Source: Candidatus Poriferisocius sp. (GTDB lineage Bacteria > Actinomycetota > Acidimicrobiia > Acidimicrobiales > Bin134). Taken from it: a stretch of 64,000 nt of DNA. The stretch is taken from contig NZ_OZ244793.1 in assembly GCF_965219775.1 (NCBI RefSeq), positions 2,039,634 to 2,103,633 on the forward strand, given 5' to 3'. Position numbers and translations under genes: made by a program. Shown here one piece after another: positions 1,844 to 40,037 of the stretch; positions within the stretch are counted from its first letter, which is position 1, and each line of letters begins with the position of its first letter. The notes under the pieces were generated by a model. The model was not told the DNA's origin and searched no databases. It worked only from the letters and a program-made list of their open reading frames with translations.

Positions 1844-3190
1844 TCACGCCCCGGACATGGTGACTTCGGCCACCACCAGGGTGACGCCCGCCGAGCTCAT
1901 GGGCAGCCAGGTGAGGTCGGACCCCACCGCGGTCACGTCCAGCAGCATGCGCTGCAGGGTGGAGGCGATGGTGATCTCCCGGATGGGCTCGGCCAACTGG
2001 CCGTTGCGAATGCGCAGCCCCTCGGCCCCGGTGGAGAAGTCGCCGCTCACCGGGTTGACGCCGGAGTGCAGCCCCGACACCCCCTGGATCAGCACCCCGT
2101 TGTCGATGCCGGCAATGAGTTCCGCCGGTGTACGGTCGCCCGGTACCAGCGACAGGGCCTGGCAGCCCACGCCGGGGGTGCCTGCGTAGCTCCGCACCGC
2201 CGACCCGGTGGACGCCGACCCGGAACGCCGGCCGGTGTAGCTGTTGTGCAGGAACCGCTCGAGCGTGCCCCCGCCGATGAGCTGGTTGCGGCGGGTGGCC
2301 AAGCCCTCGCCGTCGGCGTCGGTGGCCGAGAAGGCGGCCGGGTTGGTGGGATCGTCCACCAGGGTGACCGCACTGGCCGCCACCTGGTCGTCCAGCCGGT
2401 CGGCGAACAACGAGCGGCCCTTGAGCACCGCCTCGCCCGACAGGGTGCCGCCGATGATGCTGAGGAACTGGGCGGTGACCATCGGATCGAGCACCACGGT
2501 GACACGCTCGGTCGGAGGCTGGGTGGCCCCCAACATGCGGGTGGCCCGGTCCACCGCGTCGGTGGCCGCCTCCTCCACGCTCAAGGAGGCGGGCTCGCGG
2601 CCCACCGAGAATCCGAAACCGGTTTGCGTCTCGTCGCTTTCCGAGGCCAAGGAGTAGGCGGTGAGGTAGCACGATGTGTCCCGCCCCGAACTGCGTATGC
2701 CGGTGGTGGTGGCGATGGCGTCGGCCCCCACCACGTCGCCGTAGTCGGCCGACTCCACCCCCACGATCCGGGAATCGCCCGCCCGCACCGCCCGTTCCAG
2801 TTCGAGGGCCAGGTCGATCTTGGCCTCGGTGCCGAACGCCAACAGCGACTCGTGGTAGAGGTCGAGTTCCGGGTGGGTAACCCCGTCGGGCTCGGCCAAC
2901 CCGAAGAACTCGTCGGGTGAGCCGAACCGGGCGTTGTCGCGGGCCTCGGCCAGGGTCTCCTCCAGCACGTCGGCATCCAGGGTGCCCGCGTGGGCGAAAC
3001 CCTGGCGACCGTCGGTGATGACCCGGATGCCCACCCCCTGCGACTCGGCCACCGAGAGCGATTCGATCTCCCCCTCGTAGACCCGCACGTCAGTTTCCCG
3101 GCTGTGGCCCACCACCGCTTCGATCTGCTCGCCAGGGCCACCCCAGCCCACGATCCGCTCGGCGATGGCCAGTAGCTCCTCGGGGTTCAC
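1844..3190 (-). CDS. pmbA: PmbA/TldE-family metalloprotease modulator
   Basis: 448 aa with TldD/PmbA family features (GVGIRVITDGRQGFAHAG; C-terminal GVNPVSGDFS). It lies immediately downstream of the tldD-like gene. Confidence 0.85.
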   Translation of the reverse strand: MNPEELLAIAERIVGWGGPGEQIEAVVGHSRETDVRVYEGEIESLSVAESQGVGIRVITDGRQGFAHAGTLDADVLEETLAEARDNARFGSPDEFFGLAEPDGVTHPELDLYHESLLAFGTEAKIDLALELERAVRAGDSRIVGVESADYGDVVGADAIATTTGIRSSGRDTSCYLTAYSLASESDETQTGFGFSVGREPASLSVEEAATDAVDRATRMLGATQPPTERVTVVLDPMVTAQFLSIIGGTLSGEAVLKGRSLFADRLDDQVAASAVTLVDDPTNPAAFSATDADGEGLATRRNQLIGGGTLERFLHNSYTGRRSGSASTGSAVRSYAGTPGVGCQALSLVPGDRTPAELIAGIDNGVLIQGVSGLHSGVNPVSGDFSTGAEGLRIRNGQLAEPIREITIASTLQRMLLDVTAVGSDLTWLPMSSAGVTLVVAEVTMSGA

Positions 3191-3212
3191 CGGCCTGGCC
3201 TGCCGCCGTCGC

Positions 3213-4607
<1,395 letters not shown>

Positions 4608-4639
4608 CGCCTCAGCGTACCGCCTCCCCTCCCCGTTGC

Positions 4640-6256
4640 TCACCCCAGGTTGGAGCGGCGGGGGTAGGCATGTTCGGGGTCGCAGATGACGTTCACCAGG
4701 TAGGGCACACCGGCGTCGAGGGCCCGCTGGAGGGCGGGGGCGATGTCGTCGGGCCGGTGCACCGTCTCCCCGGCACCGCCGAGGGCGGCCACCACTTGGT
4801 CGTAGCGGCAGCCCGGCTGGAGATCGGCGGCCACGTCGTAGCCGTAGATTTGGCGCATGGGGTGTTTCTCCAGGCCCCAACAGCCGTTGTTGCCCACCAC
4901 GATGGCCACCGGCAACCGGTGGCGCACCAGCGAGTCGGCGTCCATCAGGGAGAAGCCGGCCGCCCCGTCGCCCAACAGCAGCACCACCTGGCGGTCGGGG
5001 TGGACCACCCGGGCGGCCAGGGCGTAACCCAATCCGGTGCCCAAGCAGCCGTAGGGGCCGGGGTCCAGCCAGTGACCGGGCCGGTACGACGACACGAACC
5101 GCCCGGCGTAGGACACGAAGTCGCCGCCGTCACCGATGACCACCGCGTCGCGGTCCAGCACCCGGCGCAGCTCCCCGTACACCCGCGTGGGCAGGATCGG
5201 ATCGGCGGCGGCCAGCAGGACGGCTTCCTCGGACGCTCGGGCGTCCTCCTCGGCCTCCCGAAGCCGCGTCACCCACCGGTGGCGCTCTGCGGGGTCGGCC
5301 GGGGCGGGCCCGTTGGCCAGCGCCGACATCATCTTGGTCAGGTCGCCCGCCAGCGACGCCGCGGGCTGGGCATGGCCCGACACCGACTCGGCGCTGTCGG
5401 TGAGGTGCACCACCTGGGCGTCGCCGAACCGACCGAACGACAAGCGGAAGTCCAGCGGGGTGCCCGCCACGATCACCAGGTCGGCGTCGGTGCGCAACAG
5501 CCCCCGAGTGCGGCTGAAGAACAGCTCGTGGTCGGCGGGCAGACACCCCCGCCCCAGCCCGTTGGCGAACGTGGGCAGTCGCTGGGCCTCCACCCACCCG
5601 GTCAACGCCTCCCAGGCGCCGTCCCAGTACACGTCGGAGCCCACCATCACAGCCGGGCGGCGGGCGGCGGCCACCAGGGCGGCCACCTGCTCGATCCCCT
5701 CGGCGTCGGGGGCCGCGCCCCCCGGCAGGGGCTCGTCGGGCACTGTGCCCTCGCCCTCGGCGAACAGCACGTCCATGGGGTAGTCCACGAACACCGGCCC
5801 CCGGTGGGGGGTCATGGCCGCCTGCGCAGCCCGGTAGGTGACCTCGGCCAGGTCGTCGCCCCCGGCAGCGGTGAGCGACCGTTTGGTGACCGGGGCCAGG
5901 ATGGGCACGTGGTCCAGCTCCTGCAGCGAGCCCGATCCCCAGCGGGCCTCCGGCGCCCGCCCGCCCAACACCACCACCGGCGCCCCGTTGAGCCACGCGG
6001 TGGTGACCGCGCTCACCGAGTTGGTCACCCCCGGCCCGGCGGTCACCGCCGCCACCCCCGGCCGCCGGGTGAGCTTGGCCAGGGCCTCGGCGGCGAACAC
6101 CGCGGTCTGCTCGTGGCGGACGTCGTAGAGGGCGACGTCGCCCCGTTTCACCGCCGCGTCGTACAGCGGGAAGATGTGGCCCCCCGACAGGGTGAACAGC
6201 TCCTGCACACCGAAGGGCGCCAGGGCCGCCAGCACCTGATCGCCCCCGTGGCCCAT
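4640..6256 (-). CDS. thiamine-diphosphate-dependent enzyme (acetolactate synthase large subunit / oxalyl-CoA decarboxylase-like)
   Basis: The N-terminal TPP-pyrimidine domain (RHEQTAVFAAEALAKLTRRPGVAAVTAGPGVTN) and the C-terminal TPP motif (GDGAAGFSLMDADSLVRHRLPVAIVVGNNGCWG) are both present. The start was set at ATG 6256 (MGHGGDQVL). Confidence 0.8.
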   Translation of the reverse strand: MGHGGDQVLAALAPFGVQELFTLSGGHIFPLYDAAVKRGDVALYDVRHEQTAVFAAEALAKLTRRPGVAAVTAGPGVTNSVSAVTTAWLNGAPVVVLGGRAPEARWGSGSLQELDHVPILAPVTKRSLTAAGGDDLAEVTYRAAQAAMTPHRGPVFVDYPMDVLFAEGEGTVPDEPLPGGAAPDAEGIEQVAALVAAARRPAVMVGSDVYWDGAWEALTGWVEAQRLPTFANGLGRGCLPADHELFFSRTRGLLRTDADLVIVAGTPLDFRLSFGRFGDAQVVHLTDSAESVSGHAQPAASLAGDLTKMMSALANGPAPADPAERHRWVTRLREAEEDARASEEAVLLAAADPILPTRVYGELRRVLDRDAVVIGDGGDFVSYAGRFVSSYRPGHWLDPGPYGCLGTGLGYALAARVVHPDRQVVLLLGDGAAGFSLMDADSLVRHRLPVAIVVGNNGCWGLEKHPMRQIYGYDVAADLQPGCRYDQVVAALGGAGETVHRPDDIAPALQRALDAGVPYLVNVICDPEHAYPRRSNLG

Positions 6257-6326
6257 GACTTCTCTTGCCGGCATTCGCCTCACCGTAATATCCAACGGGC
6301 TGCGTCGGGACAATAGCCTTGGCCGG

Positions 6327-7394
6327 ATGACCCCGAGGCCGCCTCCGACTGCGACGCGTGCCCAGAACCAGGCCACCGCCGCCACCGGCGGCCTGGGAAC
6401 GACCGACAAGCACCCCGTACGCCGGATGCTCGGCGTGGTCATGCGGGTGGGCATCAGCGGGGTGCTGTTGGTGCTGTTGATCTGGCGGGCCCCGTCGTTC
6501 GACGCCGACGAAATGTGGCCCGACTTCAATTCGGCCACCCCCTTCTGGCTGGTGGCCGCGTTCGCCCTCACCGTGGCCGGCAACGTGGTGGCCACCGCCC
6601 GGTGGTACGAGGTGGCCTCGGCCCTGGGACTGCGGGTGAAGCCCCGGCGCTTGTTCTCCCACTACATGGCGGGAATGTTCATCTCCAATTTCGTCCCCAC
6701 CACGGTGGGGGGCGACGTGTTGCGCATGACCCGGCTGGCCAACGACACCGACGACGGCCCCCACAGCTTCGCCTCGGTGCTGCTGGAGCGGCTGAGCGGC
6801 TGGATCGTGCTGCCGGTGTTCACCTTGCTCGGGCTGGCCCTGGACGAGGAGCTGCGGGGGCTGGGCGCCCCCACCCGGGTGGCGGCCAGCACCGCCGGAC
6901 TCACGCTGCTGGCCTTGGTGCTGATCCTGATCCTGGTGGGCAACCAACGCTTCGGCCGATGGGTGAGCAAGCACAACGGTTGGGTCCGCTTCGTGAACGG
7001 GCTGCACACCGGCATCGACGAGCTGCGGGCCAAGCCCCGCGACGCCGGCCGGGTGCTGCTCACCGCCTTTGCCTACCAGGCGGTCATGCTGACCGCCGCC
7101 GGGTGCGCGGCCAAGGTGGTGGGCATCAACGGGCTGGGACCCACCGAGTTGATGGCCTTCATTCCGGCCATGCTCATCATCCAGGTGCTGCCCATCTCCC
7201 TGGGCGGGCTCGGACTCCGGGAAGGGGCCCTGGTGCTGTTCCTCCACGAGCTGGGGGTCATCGACGAACGGGCCATCGCCATGGGACTGCTGCTCTATTT
7301 CCTGACCGTGGCCGGCAGCCTGATGGGGCTGCCGACTTTGGTGTTCGGCGGCCGCCGATGGCAAAAGGCGGCGCGTTCCCGCCGGGCGCCCTGA
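6327..7394 (+). CDS. flippase-like / lysylphosphatidylglycerol-synthase TM-domain family membrane protein
   Basis: Polytopic membrane protein with the family-typical FISNFVPTTVGGDVLRMTRL segment. The start is uncertain (ATG 6327 or a later Met at MLGVVMRVG). Confidence 0.65.
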   Translation: MTPRPPPTATRAQNQATAATGGLGTTDKHPVRRMLGVVMRVGISGVLLVLLIWRAPSFDADEMWPDFNSATPFWLVAAFALTVAGNVVATARWYEVASALGLRVKPRRLFSHYMAGMFISNFVPTTVGGDVLRMTRLANDTDDGPHSFASVLLERLSGWIVLPVFTLLGLALDEELRGLGAPTRVAASTAGLTLLALVLILILVGNQRFGRWVSKHNGWVRFVNGLHTGIDELRAKPRDAGRVLLTAFAYQAVMLTAAGCAAKVVGINGLGPTELMAFIPAMLIIQVLPISLGGLGLREGALVLFLHELGVIDERAIAMGLLLYFLTVAGSLMGLPTLVFGGRRWQKAARSRRAP

Positions 7395-34627: not shown

Positions 34628-37153
34628 TCACGTTTCGATCACGACTGGGACTTCGGCTTCGATCGCAACCGGAGTCCAGAGGTCCACCTCGACATCCGGT
34701 GAGTCGATCGACACGATCAGCGCGTACCGCACACCGGCCTCGCTACGGTCGCGGGCGCTTCGTTCCTTCCACCAGCCGGTGACCGGATAGACGGCAATCG
34801 CCCCTCGGGCCGCAAGTTCGGCTGCGGGTCCAGTCCAGTGATCCACATGCAGGGATCCTCGGACCCGCTCTCGCGGACCGAGCAGCCACTGATCAGCGTC
34901 GCTGTCCGAGCTGGGTCGCTGCTCGTCCTCCGACCGGGCGAGCCTGTTGATTCGCTTGCAAAACTCGCCGTTGCCTTCAGTGGCACGCCGCACATCAAAT
35001 CGGAGACCATGCGACGCGTATCGGAAGCGTTGCGCCCAACCTCGACGAGCCGGGCTCGGCTGAATGAAGTACGACAGCACGACTCGCATCTGCAACTCAA
35101 CCTCGCCAAGATCGCCCAGGGCATCAGCGGGCCATGGGAGGTTGTGAAGGTGCATCTCACGCATCTTGCCGTCGAGGTAGGGACGGATCCGGTGCTGCCC
35201 GATCAGCGTGACCGAGTCGTTTGCGGAGCGTAGCGCCCGGTTCATGTCGGGCACGCCCCATCCGTAGCGCCGCAGGCTCGCCACGGCTCCTTGCCGGTTG
35301 GTCCCGCTGAAATGCTTCGTCATGGAGTCGGTCCAGCGGGCCGAATGAACAATGAGTCCACGAAGTGCCTCCGGCCACAAGTGCGGGTACTCCGTCGCCA
35401 GGCGTTGGGCCAGATACGCTGCTTGCGCCGTTGCTGGGCTCGTACCGGTGACAGTCGTAAGTGGTCGACCGCCTAGCGCGGGTGCTCGGGTAGTGAGGAT
35501 TTGCAGATCTGGAGGGGTGTCGATGGAGCGATCGATTGGTGACACCGCTGCGTTTCCCCCTTCGAGAACGACCTCCGGCTTGTGGGGCCATTGGGAGCGA
35601 AAACCAACTGAGGTCCGACTGAAGGGCGACAGTTCCCCCGCTGATGCAAGAGGCACCCACCCCTCGAAGTCCTCGTGAACAATGTGGGAAAACTGGGTGA
35701 AGGCACCGACGGTCAAGGCGTTCCAAGCCTGACCTGGATCCTCAACTGGTTCGACGTCACTACGATCGAGATGATCTTCATCCAGAGGCACGCGGACGTT
35801 GCCCGCTGAGATGATGAACAGCCGTTCCGCTCCGCCGTCGGGTTCATCTATGTAGACAAGATCGCCATCGGCGGAAGACACTGCGCGGCCTGCCGCCAGA
35901 GCGTCGACCGCGGCCGACCACGCGGAAGGCTGACCGAGGTCCGATGGGTCTGCGGCGGAGTTCGGGGCCGTCACCGCGAGCGCGAAGGACCGGCGTCGCT
36001 GAGGGTGTTCGATCTCGATAATCGATGTCGCCTGGGCGGTGATGGCGCCGTACAGCTCAGGGTCGTTCTTGCCCGAGTCTGGAAGAATCTTGACCGACTC
36101 GATGCGGCCCTGGACCTGGATTGGCCCGTCGACCAAGAAGCACTCAGCAAGATCCCCGTGAATTGCGAGACCGGCCATCTCGGTGCCGTGCCCTCGACGA
36201 TCATCGCTGCCCCACCGAGGATCCACGCTGTGAGCGTCATTCGGCGCAATCGCGATCCGGAGCAGCGGGTGTTCTGTCGTCACTCCTGTGTCCAGCAGGC
36301 ACGTCACTGCACGATCATCGGCTGGCACGACCAGTCGCCCAGCCAACTCGTCCACAAACTCGCCTTGTTCGGATGCTGGCAGATCCGCCAAGAACTGTGC
36401 AGGGTCCACAGGGTGACGAAGCTCAGAAATGTCGTCAAGTAGATTGAGGGCTGAGCCGAGCTGTCCGGATGTGGCTCGCACGAGGACCACCAAGCGATCT
36501 TCCAAGACCAGTCGTTGGCGCCCGATCGTAACCCCGATGATTTCGGCGAAGTCTTGGAGTCGTGAGTTCACTCCTTCCCGATTCCGAAGCCATACCTCCC
36601 ACCACACTGCCTTCTCACTGTCGGGAAAAGCGTCTTCGTCGTCGGTCCAGAGGGCACGAAGTGTCGCCAGTCGCAACTCTGCAATTCTCTCCACCAGATT
36701 CTTGTTCTTGGGATTGCCGCGATTCGTGTCTTCGGAGACGTAGTCCTCGAATCGCTTTGTGAACCTCCCAATCCAACCCTCGGGAACGAAGACTGTTGCC
36801 AATTGCACAGACTCCCCCTCGACCTCACGTGTCGTCACTGCGCACAGCTCGGGGTGAACGGATCCCTGCTGAGGCTCAAGTGAGGTCAGTGCAAGCTCGA
36901 AACCAGGATGCGACTGGAACTGCACATAGATGCCCTCCAAGGCACCTTCGACTTGAATGGCGTCGTGATCTTCCTTACGCCTCTGGGCCGCTTCCGCCGC
37001 GGCGTCCAGTTGATCGATGAGTTTGCGGCCGTGCTGTATTCGGTCGGCAGGTGATGGCGGGGCTCCCGACTCGCGTCCCGATGTCGGCGGGGCGTAGTCA
37101 TCAACCCAAGGAGCCCGCGTGACGATGACGTGGCGCCTGTTCCGTTCTGCCAT
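34628..37153 (-). CDS. cytoplasmic S8 (subtilisin-like) serine peptidase with ~280-aa N-terminal domain of unknown family (IetS-like)
   Basis: The catalytic set is CLLD288TG (codon 36290-36292), GH322GTEMAG, SAGN452 and GTS572PATAQ (codon 35438-35440). There is no signal peptide or TM helix. The start lies 9 nt downstream of the AAA ATPase stop. Confidence 0.85.
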   Translation of the reverse strand: MAERNRRHVIVTRAPWVDDYAPPTSGRESGAPPSPADRIQHGRKLIDQLDAAAEAAQRRKEDHDAIQVEGALEGIYVQFQSHPGFELALTSLEPQQGSVHPELCAVTTREVEGESVQLATVFVPEGWIGRFTKRFEDYVSEDTNRGNPKNKNLVERIAELRLATLRALWTDDEDAFPDSEKAVWWEVWLRNREGVNSRLQDFAEIIGVTIGRQRLVLEDRLVVLVRATSGQLGSALNLLDDISELRHPVDPAQFLADLPASEQGEFVDELAGRLVVPADDRAVTCLLDTGVTTEHPLLRIAIAPNDAHSVDPRWGSDDRRGHGTEMAGLAIHGDLAECFLVDGPIQVQGRIESVKILPDSGKNDPELYGAITAQATSIIEIEHPQRRRSFALAVTAPNSAADPSDLGQPSAWSAAVDALAAGRAVSSADGDLVYIDEPDGGAERLFIISAGNVRVPLDEDHLDRSDVEPVEDPGQAWNALTVGAFTQFSHIVHEDFEGWVPLASAGELSPFSRTSVGFRSQWPHKPEVVLEGGNAAVSPIDRSIDTPPDLQILTTRAPALGGRPLTTVTGTSPATAQAAYLAQRLATEYPHLWPEALRGLIVHSARWTDSMTKHFSGTNRQGAVASLRRYGWGVPDMNRALRSANDSVTLIGQHRIRPYLDGKMREMHLHNLPWPADALGDLGEVELQMRVVLSYFIQPSPARRGWAQRFRYASHGLRFDVRRATEGNGEFCKRINRLARSEDEQRPSSDSDADQWLLGPRERVRGSLHVDHWTGPAAELAARGAIAVYPVTGWWKERSARDRSEAGVRYALIVSIDSPDVEVDLWTPVAIEAEVPVVIET

Positions 37154-37162
37154 AGTCCGGCC

Positions 37163-38140
37163 TCATTCAGGCGGACTGTCCGACCGATTTCGCCACCTGA
37201 GCGCCTCCACGAGAAAATCTGTCCTGACCTGGAGGGTGCCAGCCAAGATCGAATCCTTGGCTGCCTGTTCAGCAGCGGCCGTGACCTCCGAGTGGCTCAG
37301 CCCCTTGGCAGCGGTGGACACTCCACGCCAGTCCACCGCCCGAAGGTCGAGCGACGCAAGGCGAGCGCGTATCACTTGCTTTGCGATGGCCCCAGTCGGC
37401 ATCGGGTAGTCGAGGGTTGCATCGAATCGTCGATACAGCGCTCGGTCGAGATGCTCAGGCAGGTTCGACGTGGCGACGATAACGCTGTCGGACACATCTT
37501 GCTCGAGGAACTGCAGGAAGGAGTTCAGCACTCTTCGGATCTCACCGACATCATTGCTCAGACCACGCGCACCGGCGAGTGCGTCGACTTCATCGAACAG
37601 GTATACGCCTGCGATCTCCGCAACCTGGTCAAAGATGAGGCGTAGTTTCGCCGCAGTCTCTCCCATGAACTTCGTAATCAAGCCCTCTAGTCGGACCGTG
37701 AAGAGCGGAAGATGCAGCTCGCCAGCCAGCACCTTGGCCGTCAGCGTCTTACCCGTCCCCGGAGGGCCCACGAGCAGCAGACGGCGCTGAGGCGCGAAGC
37801 CCGTTGCCCGAAGGCGATCCCGTTGCCGCTGTTCCAGCAACACTCGACGCAGCAACGACAGGACGTCGTTGTCCAGCGACAGGTCTGACAACCGCTGTTC
37901 CGGGTACTCCACGGAAAGCAAGGCCGCCAGATCACCGCGCGGCGAAGCCACCGGCGTCGGTCCGGGTCTCGGCACTCGCCCCTTCGACGCGTCGATCAGA
38001 TCTCGCAGTTGCTGCGCGTACCCTGCGTGGCCGCTGCGCGCTTCCCGAGCAGCCATCTGGAGCGCCACGGCGTAGAACTGGTCGTCGTCACCCGCGGCGT
38101 GACTCTTGATCAGGGCCTTCACTTGAGCCGCAGTCGCCAT
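37163..38140 (-). CDS. AAA+ family ATPase (IetA-like)
   Basis: 325 aa. Walker A is GPPGTGKT (residues 125-132) and Walker B is VYLFDEVD (about residues 179-186). A sensor/arginine region follows (VIVATSNLPEHLDRALYRRFD). An N-terminal helical region of about 110 aa precedes these. Confidence 0.85.
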   Translation of the reverse strand: MATAAQVKALIKSHAAGDDDQFYAVALQMAAREARSGHAGYAQQLRDLIDASKGRVPRPGPTPVASPRGDLAALLSVEYPEQRLSDLSLDNDVLSLLRRVLLEQRQRDRLRATGFAPQRRLLLVGPPGTGKTLTAKVLAGELHLPLFTVRLEGLITKFMGETAAKLRLIFDQVAEIAGVYLFDEVDALAGARGLSNDVGEIRRVLNSFLQFLEQDVSDSVIVATSNLPEHLDRALYRRFDATLDYPMPTGAIAKQVIRARLASLDLRAVDWRGVSTAAKGLSHSEVTAAAEQAAKDSILAGTLQVRTDFLVEALRWRNRSDSPPE

Positions 38141-38518
38141 CTCCTACACCTCACCTCGTCCGTACACGGGTGGCGGCACCCCCTGACCCATCACCGTAGT
38201 TCAGGCCTCCGGGCTGCCAGAGGTCCAATCCATTGCCGACATCAAGGCCTCAGTCGTGTTCGCGGCCCCTCCAATATGAACCGCGTGGGCGACCGATTCC
38301 TGCACGGCCAGTTCGAGCCTGGCCCCGGGAACACCACGCCTGCCGCGCACAAGGCCTCCTTGCACGGCAAACCCGTTCCCATCCGGCCATCTCCCCCTGT
38401 AGCGTTCGGTGGCTCCCCCCCCGCCGCATTCTGCCCTCCGAGGTTGCTCCTGCCTGTCACCGGTGTCGGTATGCTGTTGGCAGAGAAGCCCCAGTTCACA
38501 GCCCCTGGGCTTACCACG

Positions 38519-38524
38519 AAGGAG
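38519..38524 (+). promoter_or_regulatory. Shine-Dalgarno AAGGAG, 6 nt upstream of GTG 38531
   Basis: A canonical AAGGAG with a 6-nt spacer (ATCGAA) precedes an in-frame GTG that opens the small ORF ending at 38722. Confidence 0.4.
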
Positions 38525-38530
38525 ATCGAA

Positions 38531-38722
38531 GTGGAGACTCAGACTGTCCCTCGAGAGGACATCGTTGAGATGTTGCGATGGAATGCCGAAGCGACCGGTC
38601 TGGGACTGCGCGATTTCTACGAACTCGGCAAGGATGACCGCCTCGACCACCCCCTGCTCAGAGACCTCTGGCTCATCTGGGGCGACGTCCTGACAGAATC
38701 CGACCTGCTCTCGGCAGCGTGA
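38531..38722 (+). CDS. small hypothetical protein (63 aa; 83 aa if ATG 38471 is used), first gene of a three-gene cassette
   Basis: The sequence is VETQTVPREDIVEMLRWNAEATGLGLRDFYELGKDDRLDHPLLRDLWLIWGDVLTESDLLSAA. Its stop overlaps the next gene's GTG (GTGA). No family recognised. Confidence 0.4.
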   Translation: METQTVPREDIVEMLRWNAEATGLGLRDFYELGKDDRLDHPLLRDLWLIWGDVLTESDLLSAA

Positions 38723-39369
38723 ACGACACACTCAAATCACACCCCTCTGCGGGGGCCTACTTGGGCCGTGGAATCTACGATGTTGCAGAGGTCGCGCGCC
38801 TCACAAAGTGCAGTAGGCGTCGGGTGGAAGGGTGGACCAGGACCGGTGCCGTGAGGGAACCCCTGCTGTCGGGAGAACTGGACGGCCTGTTCAGCTTTTG
38901 GGACCTGCTCAGCCTCCGCGTCATCGGTGAACTTGTGGATCGAGGAGTGCCACGAGCTGAAATCGCCGAGGGGGCCAACTACCTGGCCGTTAGGCTGGGT
39001 ACTCACAGGCCATTCGCCCATCAGGGTCTTGCCACGGTTGGCCGGGGGTTCTTTGCCGACATTGGGAGTTGGGTAGATGTCGGCAGGGGCGGTCAACAGG
39101 CCTTCCAGGTTGTGATTGAACCCCTACTTAAGCCAATCACATTCAATGAATCGGGTATGGCAGCCATTTGGAGACCGCATCTGGGAGTCTGGGTGAACCC
39201 AGAGGTCCAAGCAGGGGCACCCTGTGTCGATGGCACGAGGACACCCACGGCCACACTCGCTCAATTGCATAACTCTGGGTTGAGCATAGAGGACTTGTCG
39301 GATGACTACCGACTCCAATATGAACAAGTGCAAGCTGCCATTGATTTTGAAGCCAGCATGGCGGCGTGA
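38719..39369 (+). CDS. HTH + DUF433 domain protein (VapB45-like putative antitoxin/regulator)
   Basis: The N-terminal HTH-like segment is GIYDVAEVARLTKCSRRRVEGWTRTG. The C-terminal DUF433 signature is NPEVQAGAPCVDGTRTPTATLAQLHNSGLSIEDLSDDYRLQYEQVQAAIDF. Confidence 0.75.
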   Translation: MNDTLKSHPSAGAYLGRGIYDVAEVARLTKCSRRRVEGWTRTGAVREPLLSGELDGLFSFWDLLSLRVIGELVDRGVPRAEIAEGANYLAVRLGTHRPFAHQGLATVGRGFFADIGSWVDVGRGGQQAFQVVIEPLLKPITFNESGMAAIWRPHLGVWVNPEVQAGAPCVDGTRTPTATLAQLHNSGLSIEDLSDDYRLQYEQVQAAIDFEASMAA

Positions 39370-39896
39370 GCCCTCAACCGACAAAACCCAGACTACGCCC
39401 TAAGATTCGACTCCTATTCGACGAAAATCTGCCTTGGAGAGTGGCTGCAGCCTTGGAGACACTCAACTTTCACTCTACCTATGTCGGGGATAAGAACCAC
39501 CCTGATGTTCCAACTAGGGGCTCATCAGATGAGGAAGTTCTGAGGTATACTGAAGGGGTAAATCGAACTATTGTGACTTCCAACTACGACATGATCTTGC
39601 TGTGCACTGAGCGCAAGCAATCGGTGATTTGGATAGATGCACGAGGCCGTGACTTTCGATTTGAAGAACTTGTTCTGCTAGTCTTTAAGAATATCTCCGA
39701 CTGGAATGACAGGCTCAAACAAGCTTCACTTCCAATATGCCTTCAGGCTATGAGGACGAAGACTGTCACGCTGACTATGGAAGAGGCCGCGCAGCGTGCC
39801 CACTCGAGGATGCTTCGCAGCTCCGCCAAAAAACGGAGAAACAAGTCCCATACACCGCTGGGCCCTCTCCTGTCCCCTGAAGATGAATCGAAGTGA
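39366..39896 (+). CDS. DUF5615 (PIN-like/Mut7-C-like) putative toxin nuclease with extended basic C-terminal tail
   Basis: A GTGA overlap links it to the DUF433 gene. IRLLFDENLPWRVAAAL ... IVTSNYDM matches the DUF5615 core. This gene has the lowest G+C in the window (30/60 and 31/60 in two hand-counted lines). Confidence 0.7.
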   Translation: MSPQPTKPRLRPKIRLLFDENLPWRVAAALETLNFHSTYVGDKNHPDVPTRGSSDEEVLRYTEGVNRTIVTSNYDMILLCTERKQSVIWIDARGRDFRFEELVLLVFKNISDWNDRLKQASLPICLQAMRTKTVTLTMEEAAQRAHSRMLRSSAKKRRNKSHTPLGPLLSPEDESK

Positions 39897-40037
39897 TGCC
39901 CAACGACCGCTGACTGCCATGAGCAGGTCAAGGTCCCAGTGTGGGCTGGCTCTCCGGCAACGGACTCGGCCCACATCAGTCATGCTCCAATCTGCTGCGG
40001 CCACCAATGGAGCTTGCCGTGGCCAGGCGGAGACGGG

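Follow-up and report, generated by a model that had tools for sequence, protein, structure and literature searches.

The 64-kb window analysed here (64,000 nucleotides of contig NZ_OZ244793.1 of Candidatus Poriferisocius sp., positions 2,039,634 to 2,103,633) carries a cassette of three consecutive forward genes, called A, B and C below, that is probably a mosaic operon produced by recombination of two unrelated two-gene modules. In this reading, A is the orphan partner of a lost gene, X, and is not part of the toxin-antitoxin (TA) pair formed by B and C. The three genes are joined by two GTGA overlaps. The stop codon of A (TGA, 38720–38722) overlaps the start codon of B (GTG, 38719–38721), and the stop codon of B (TGA, 39367–39369) overlaps the start codon of C (GTG, 39366–39368). 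An earlier note, made from the sequence alone, had given these reading frames and overlaps at coordinates that we confirmed, and had proposed the small protein A as a third component of the TA system. The window holds two homology blocks that abut within the cassette, A and the B-C pair occur together at no other locus surveyed, and all three genes are intact.

The left block, from about 38452 to 38740, aligns with loci of the A-X module and presents in the same order a promoter-like motif, a Shine-Dalgarno (SD) sequence, the whole of A and the GTGA overlap. The overlap is identical in 8/8 aligned A-X loci, and similarity fades 10–25 nt into B. Positions 38731–38739 (CTCAAATCA) agree in 8 of 9 nucleotides with the short X stubs of two other loci (L005 and L016), and the first residues of B, MNDTLKS, resemble the N-termini of X proteins (MSDLLET, MNNRLRS). 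The right block is a forward-strand segment (38756–39900) homologous to native B-C loci, with blastn identities of 69–73% to L089, L047, L090 and L092 that start at 38756 or 38758 and extend to 39791 or 39900, the latter being 4 nt past the stop codon of C. No more than about 15 nt separate the two blocks. The right block is missing its own promoter box. Native B genes (L089, L090, L092) have a box TGTCAT-N9-TAC(G/A)CT located 5–11 nt before the start codon, and in the window the place of this box is taken by the 3′ end of A. Judged from these alignments, B appears to be an in-frame chimera of about seven X-derived codons and the B body, the inherited GTGA junction and X stub (38719–38740) now forming its 5′ end, and the translational coupling of A and B appears to be the reused A/X junction. 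The window would then be one more X-loss event, with an unusual replacement.

The context of A was surveyed at 56 loci, 44 from species-representative genomes and 12 from metagenomes. Homologues of B or C were found in the flanks of none of the genome loci (0/44) and none of the metagenome loci (0/12). The native B-C loci, about 13 in number (L047–L057 from the order, and L089–L093, the closest relatives with 75–80% identity to B), are two-gene units: a DUF5615 gene comes directly after B, overlapping it by the same 4 nt, and A stands beside 0 of these ~13 pairs. The description of DUF433-DUF5615 pairs as two-gene units in the earlier note agrees with the native loci. The same note had set as a check that homologues of A should recur upstream of such pairs. 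Conserved homologues do exist, none of them in an equivalent position. A occurs in 14 of the 40 genomes of the genus, and the A-B-C arrangement is present in 1 of these 14 congeners, namely the source genome (G000). In another genome of the genus (G165), one contig carries A together with an internally deleted X, and a different contig carries a B-C pair. Because none of the 56 A loci is associated with B-C, native B-C pairs occur without A, and A normally precedes X, the role of third component proposed for A was not sustained. This removes a false lead, namely that DUF433-DUF5615 systems have a hidden third component.

The usual partner of A, X, is a conserved protein of ~230 aa with the motifs …RPVFRIEYDR…AHIHLHAES…HFPVGGRRFRPTVEE…, from which a signature AHxHLHAES / HFPVGGRRFRPTVEE can be written. 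The family comprises at least 117 protein clusters, all labelled 'hypothetical', and searches of Pfam, NCBIfam, PADLOC, PHROG and PDB sequence profiles gave no significant match to X. An AlphaFold2 (AF2) model of X (pLDDT 87.6, pTM 0.85) had no significant fold neighbour in a Foldseek search of the PDB. The possibility that X is divergent kin of B or C was also considered and rejected, as hmmsearch with filters off returned nothing. Full-length X, starting at the stop codon of A with a 4-nt overlap, was present in 23 of the 44 genome loci, X fragments or frameshifts in 9 and no X in 12. The 12 metagenome loci include five with X and one with an X stub. The pair of A (63 aa) and X (~230 aa) with its 4-nt overlap was observed as a widespread two-gene module of Acidimicrobiia and other Actinobacteria (L002:5001-5884 and ~27 other loci, e.g. 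L018, L028, L036 and L044). Searches of the 64-kb window by tblastn and hidden Markov model detected no X gene or remnant downstream of C or elsewhere, apart from the stub of ~7 codons at the A/B junction.

Loss of X is common elsewhere. The gene is replaced or interrupted by insertion sequence (IS) elements, a CoiA-like nuclease gene or unrelated DNA, and A is left intact. The breakpoints of independent events, including IS insertion, the CoiA-like gene, deletions and frameshifts, lie between −12 and +45 nt of the stop codon of A. Retention of the small coupled upstream gene, recurrent destruction of the large downstream one and a patchy distribution suggest that A is an antitoxin or immunity partner and X the harmful partner. 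The repeated loss of the large gene with retention of the small one adds evidence for A-X as an uncharacterised TA-like module, and the pair may represent a widespread new system of this kind. The A-X module, rather than the cassette, is the more novel entity and the better experimental target, and its small gene is all that is present here.

Two further observations concern this module. In several sponge symbionts, a CoiA-like nuclease gene (CoiA_N, E=6e-6) occupies the place of X (L006:5248-5982, L013:5270-6025, L110:684-1424 and L111:3275-4030). At these loci a gap of 40–110 nt follows A, translational coupling is absent and the last few codons of A are altered. A second and distant A-X copy is located in the source genome about 0.9 Mb away (L095, G000:C1:2980500-2988500; features at 2879-3064, 3031-3762, 3923-4612 on the reverse strand and 4975-7184). 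Its 243-aa gene is the only X-like gene of the genome (E=2.8e-30 to the X profile) and is overlapped by a 61-aa open reading frame (ORF) ending in …LRRAWFVIEGL that is weakly A-like (hhalign P=15%). The two genes and a solo DUF433 gene, which lacks a PIN-like partner, converge, and IS21-like istA/istB genes lie next to the pair. The link between X and DUF433 hinted at by this locus was judged a coincidence of TA-rich islands, since 0/56 A loci show such a link.

Gene A (38531–38722, forward strand) encodes a conserved small helical protein of 63 aa, which here stands without X. The earlier note had left its length at 63 or 83 aa. Homologue lengths and register favour the shorter form: a search of 5.8 billion proteins returned 45 relatives, nearly all of 62–63 aa, whose N-termini (M[AT]S[LI]TVPRE) are in register with GTG 38531. 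The SD sequence AAGGAG (38519–38524, forward strand), read from the sequence, ends 6 nt before this GTG, and homologous loci have AGGAGG at the same place. On these grounds GTG 38531 is taken as the best predicted start. The 83-aa form from ATG 38471 was rejected given the length of the homologues and the position of this ATG within a conserved −10-like box. The relatives belong to sponge-associated Acidimicrobiia (Ca. Poriferisocius, Spongiisocius, Aldehydirespirator), with distant ones in Demequina. The ratio of nonsynonymous to synonymous substitution rates (dN/dS) of the window A against 13 relatives is 0.05–0.14, with dS >1 and saturated, and A is considered a genuine gene under strong purifying selection because of these values. 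Mean dN/dS is 0.078 in copies of A with X and 0.127 in copies without X.

The earlier note had called this ORF an orphan with no recognised match. No Pfam, NCBIfam, PADLOC or PHROG family matches A, which agrees with the second half of that statement; given its 45 relatives, A is an orphan only in that its usual partner is gone. An AF2 model (pLDDT 89) places helices at residues 8–21, 26–34, 41–53 and 56–61. Sequence profiles of the PDB gave no significant match, and Foldseek of the model against the PDB gave a best E of 1.5. A was also considered as a distant DUF433-like three-helix bundle, which was rejected on an hhalign probability of 1.4% between A and the B family. Matches to Gemin5 and PA0617 (E ~0.03–0.04), obtained in identity searches on A and X, are regarded as chance. 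None of the tests run revealed a SecB-like, ribbon-helix-helix (RHH) or helix-turn-helix (HTH) signature in A. The segment 'TVPREDIVEML..A..G' may resemble the ribbon-helix-helix of Arc/CopG, a likeness that is backed by no test. Overall, A is most likely an antitoxin-like or immunity partner of the lost X, retained as an orphan. In two activated-sludge contigs (L117:36-776 and L118:263-1207), an A-like segment with 48% identity forms the C-terminus of a 246–314-aa protein with repeated HTH-like units.

Gene B (38719–39369, forward strand) encodes a 216-aa putative antitoxin of the Rv2018/VapB45 type, with a MerR-like HTH followed by DUF433. Residues 20–84 match the MerR_1 HTH of Pfam (E=5e-8) and residues 159–210 match DUF433 (PF04255, E=8.6e-15, 54.8 bits vs a cut-off of 23.6), in agreement with the domain layout that the earlier note had described. 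The profile of the B family matches PDB 5af3, the M. tuberculosis Rv2018 structure, over positions 60–211 (E=1.3e-11). More than 120 homologues of 202–240 aa were found, and B aligns over its full length with relatives in two-gene units, with no extra chaperone-addiction extension. Gene C (39366–39896, forward strand) encodes a 176-aa DUF5615 protein, a putative RNase toxin of the Mut7-C-group PIN-like type. The DUF5615 core that the earlier note had recognised in it is borne out by Pfam (residues 15–113, PF18480, E=4.6e-12), together with a weak match to PIN_10 (PF18478, E=0.013). C keeps all residues that are invariant among its close relatives, including D19, E20, D55–E57, T71-S72-N73, D75 and D91, and the basic C-terminal tail is conserved. 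By analogy with the PIN literature, the conserved acidic residues may be catalytic.

Pairs of the VapBC45 type are described in the literature. Makarova et al. (2009; PMC2701414) have predicted pairs of COG2442/DUF433 with PIN proteins and pointed out Rv2018, an HTH fusion, alongside Rv2019. Matelska et al. (2017; PMC5499597) have assigned COG4634 and PIN_10 to the Mut7-C group. Sala et al. (2014; PMC3968373) have named the Rv2018-Rv2019 pair VapBC45, and Kim et al. (2016; PMC5175181) have reported that Rv2019 is a toxic RNase that is neutralised by Rv2018 alone, with no third partner. The assignment of the second and third genes to this type in the earlier note is upheld by the match to 5af3 and by the naming in the literature. 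B-C can be classified, from its domains and profiles, as a predicted new member of the experimentally validated two-gene DUF433 / PIN-like (VapBC45) TA type, growth inhibition by the toxin and its neutralisation having been demonstrated for Rv2019/Rv2018 only. Both systems have an N-terminal HTH and a C-terminal DUF433, followed by a small PIN-like protein with a 4-nt overlap. In contrast to Rv2019, C scores best to DUF5615 and not to PIN_10, which would place it in a sister branch. The window pair also differs in having no native promoter box and in its in-frame fusion, via ~7 foreign codons, to the tail of an unrelated small gene.

The promoter-like motif of the left block, TGTCAC-N9-TATGCT (38455–38475, forward strand), occurs once in the 64-kb window against an expectation of 0, and its −10-like box TATGCT holds ATG 38471. 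Six other loci (L002, L006, L008, L009, L012 and L017) have this motif upstream of A at an equal distance, and it probably acts as a promoter. A generic scan for sigma-70 promoters and terminators found none. The relaxed form TGTCAY-N9-TAYRCT has 18 copies in the 3.45-Mb source genome, all with N9; spacings of N8, N12, N15 and N17 gave no copy. Apart from the window copy, the remaining 17 are located 1–7 nt (7 nt in 16 of 17) 5′ of the starts of multicopy DUF222+HNH (13E12-like) genes. From its distribution it looks like a promoter specific to this lineage that drives leaderless or short-leader transcripts of selfish modules. Palindromic elements around the promoter and 5′ untranslated region (5′UTR) of A are conserved. 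A short palindrome CCAG-N10-CTGG lies in the presumed 5′UTR (38488–38510, CCCAGTTCACAGCCCCTGGG) and at the equivalent place in L002, L008 and L014, and it could be an operator or an RNA hairpin.

Taken as a mosaic, the cassette would have received its left part (~38452–38740) from an A-X module, comprising the promoter-like motif, the SD, A, the overlap and the first ~7 codons of X, and its right part (~38741–39900) would be a complete HTH-DUF433 / DUF5615 pair minus its own promoter box. B-C would work as an ordinary type II TA system, as suggested by the experiments on Rv2018/Rv2019, with C as the PIN-like RNase and B as its DNA-binding antitoxin. Given the loss of the native box, the pair would now be transcribed from the promoter of A, and B would be translated by coupling to A, through reinitiation at the inherited overlap. 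A recombinant with C and no expressed B would be lethal, which may explain why an in-frame junction survived; such a junction is a prediction of addiction logic. Most likely, A has no effect on B-C and is kept as an orphan, the situation found at ~20 other loci. On the mosaic reading, the window captures at near-nucleotide resolution the rebuilding of a TA operon by gene swap behind a retained small first gene.

Several points weigh against a mosaic with an idle A. With an undamaged reading frame, an SD of its own and tight coupling to B, A may have gained a new function, e.g. repression of the shared promoter. The crossover is ambiguous within codons 1–8, the native B leader varies and matches that of the window in length, and the likeness of MNDTLKS to X N-termini rests on ~20 nt. 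The antitoxin and toxin roles of A and X are deduced solely from gene order, coupling, decay pattern and patchy distribution. In addition, A-B-C is a single case, which gives no basis for judging how old it is or whether selection maintains it. A related and unlikely explanation is that A acts as a portable leader, a small regulator or antitoxin that brings its own promoter and can be set before varied effectors. In this genome it would be a working first component, such as a repressor of the shared promoter, and the system would then be comparable to omega-epsilon-zeta or paaR-paaA-parE. A and its promoter motif do stand intact before at least three kinds of cargo, namely X, the CoiA-like nuclease (L006, L013, L110 and L111) and B-C, and A is constrained even where X is absent. 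The fusion of an A-like segment to HTH repeats in L117 and L118, the conserved palindromes, and the fact that B-C has no promoter box and must use that of A also fit a leader. However, A has no HTH or RHH family match or fold neighbour, and DNA binding by A is putative. The CoiA-type loci are uncoupled by their gaps and have altered A C-termini, which argues for collateral replacement and not for design. A-B-C has been seen once only, and the HTH in B makes a separate regulator unnecessary. It is likewise unlikely that the promoter and A form a reusable front end that captures cassettes (X, a CoiA-like nuclease, a whole DUF433-DUF5615 pair) by recombination at the stop/start overlap, with A here as a working regulator or co-antitoxin of B-C; if this were true, the window would show a newly born three-component TA.

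A genuine tripartite TA system, in which A acts physically on B and/or C as a chaperone, adaptor or co-antitoxin, is very improbable. The tight translational coupling of three intact genes is what such a system would show, but this coupling appears to be inherited from the A-X junction, and A with B-C was found together nowhere else. Systems such as the toxin-antitoxin-chaperone (TAC) type (HigB-HigA-SecB-like chaperone), omega-epsilon-zeta and paaR-paaA-parE have a three-gene synteny conserved in many genomes and a third protein that is a SecB-like chaperone or an RHH/HTH repressor. The cassette resembles them in its three co-oriented and packed genes with the toxin last. It differs in that its synteny is unique to one genome and in that A, 63 aa long and modelled as all-helical, does not resemble the SecB-like chaperones of TAC and has no signature of either kind of third protein. 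The full-length match of B to its two-gene relatives, with no chaperone-addiction extension, and the sufficiency of Rv2018-Rv2019 without a third gene also argue against it. As compared here, the three-gene layout lacks the tripartite hallmark of conserved synteny and a recognisable third protein, and is best classified as an apparent singleton mosaic, not a variant system. Compared with the A-X module, the window shares its promoter motif, SD, A, stop/start overlap and a short X stub, and differs from it in the absence of a full-length X gene.

The source genome is a metagenome-assembled genome (MAG) and the arrangement is unique, which raises the question of an assembly artefact joining two separate loci of the MAG. 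This explanation is extremely improbable. A Logan contig (L066, run ERR13605531), which was produced by a different assembler and may come from the same sample as the genome, is 100% identical to the window over 38590–39634 and spans the A/B junction. Moreover, the genome is a single 3.45-Mb contig, and the fusion is in frame with an intact start codon.

GC content falls from ~0.68 in the surrounding genome to 0.60 in A, 0.58 in B and 0.50 in C. The cassette adjoins an IetAS-like pair, which consists of an IteA-like AAA ATPase and an S8 protease (34632–38158) and was observed as a mobile unit of its own. In two relatives (G292 and G303), homology of 67–73% nt identity covers only the two IetAS genes plus 12–18 nt and ends at 38152/38158. 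A syntenic ancestral site beside IetAS in these relatives was ruled out, as the homology is confined to IetAS itself. A spacer of ~290 nt (38159–38450) separates the IetAS-like unit from the promoter motif of A.

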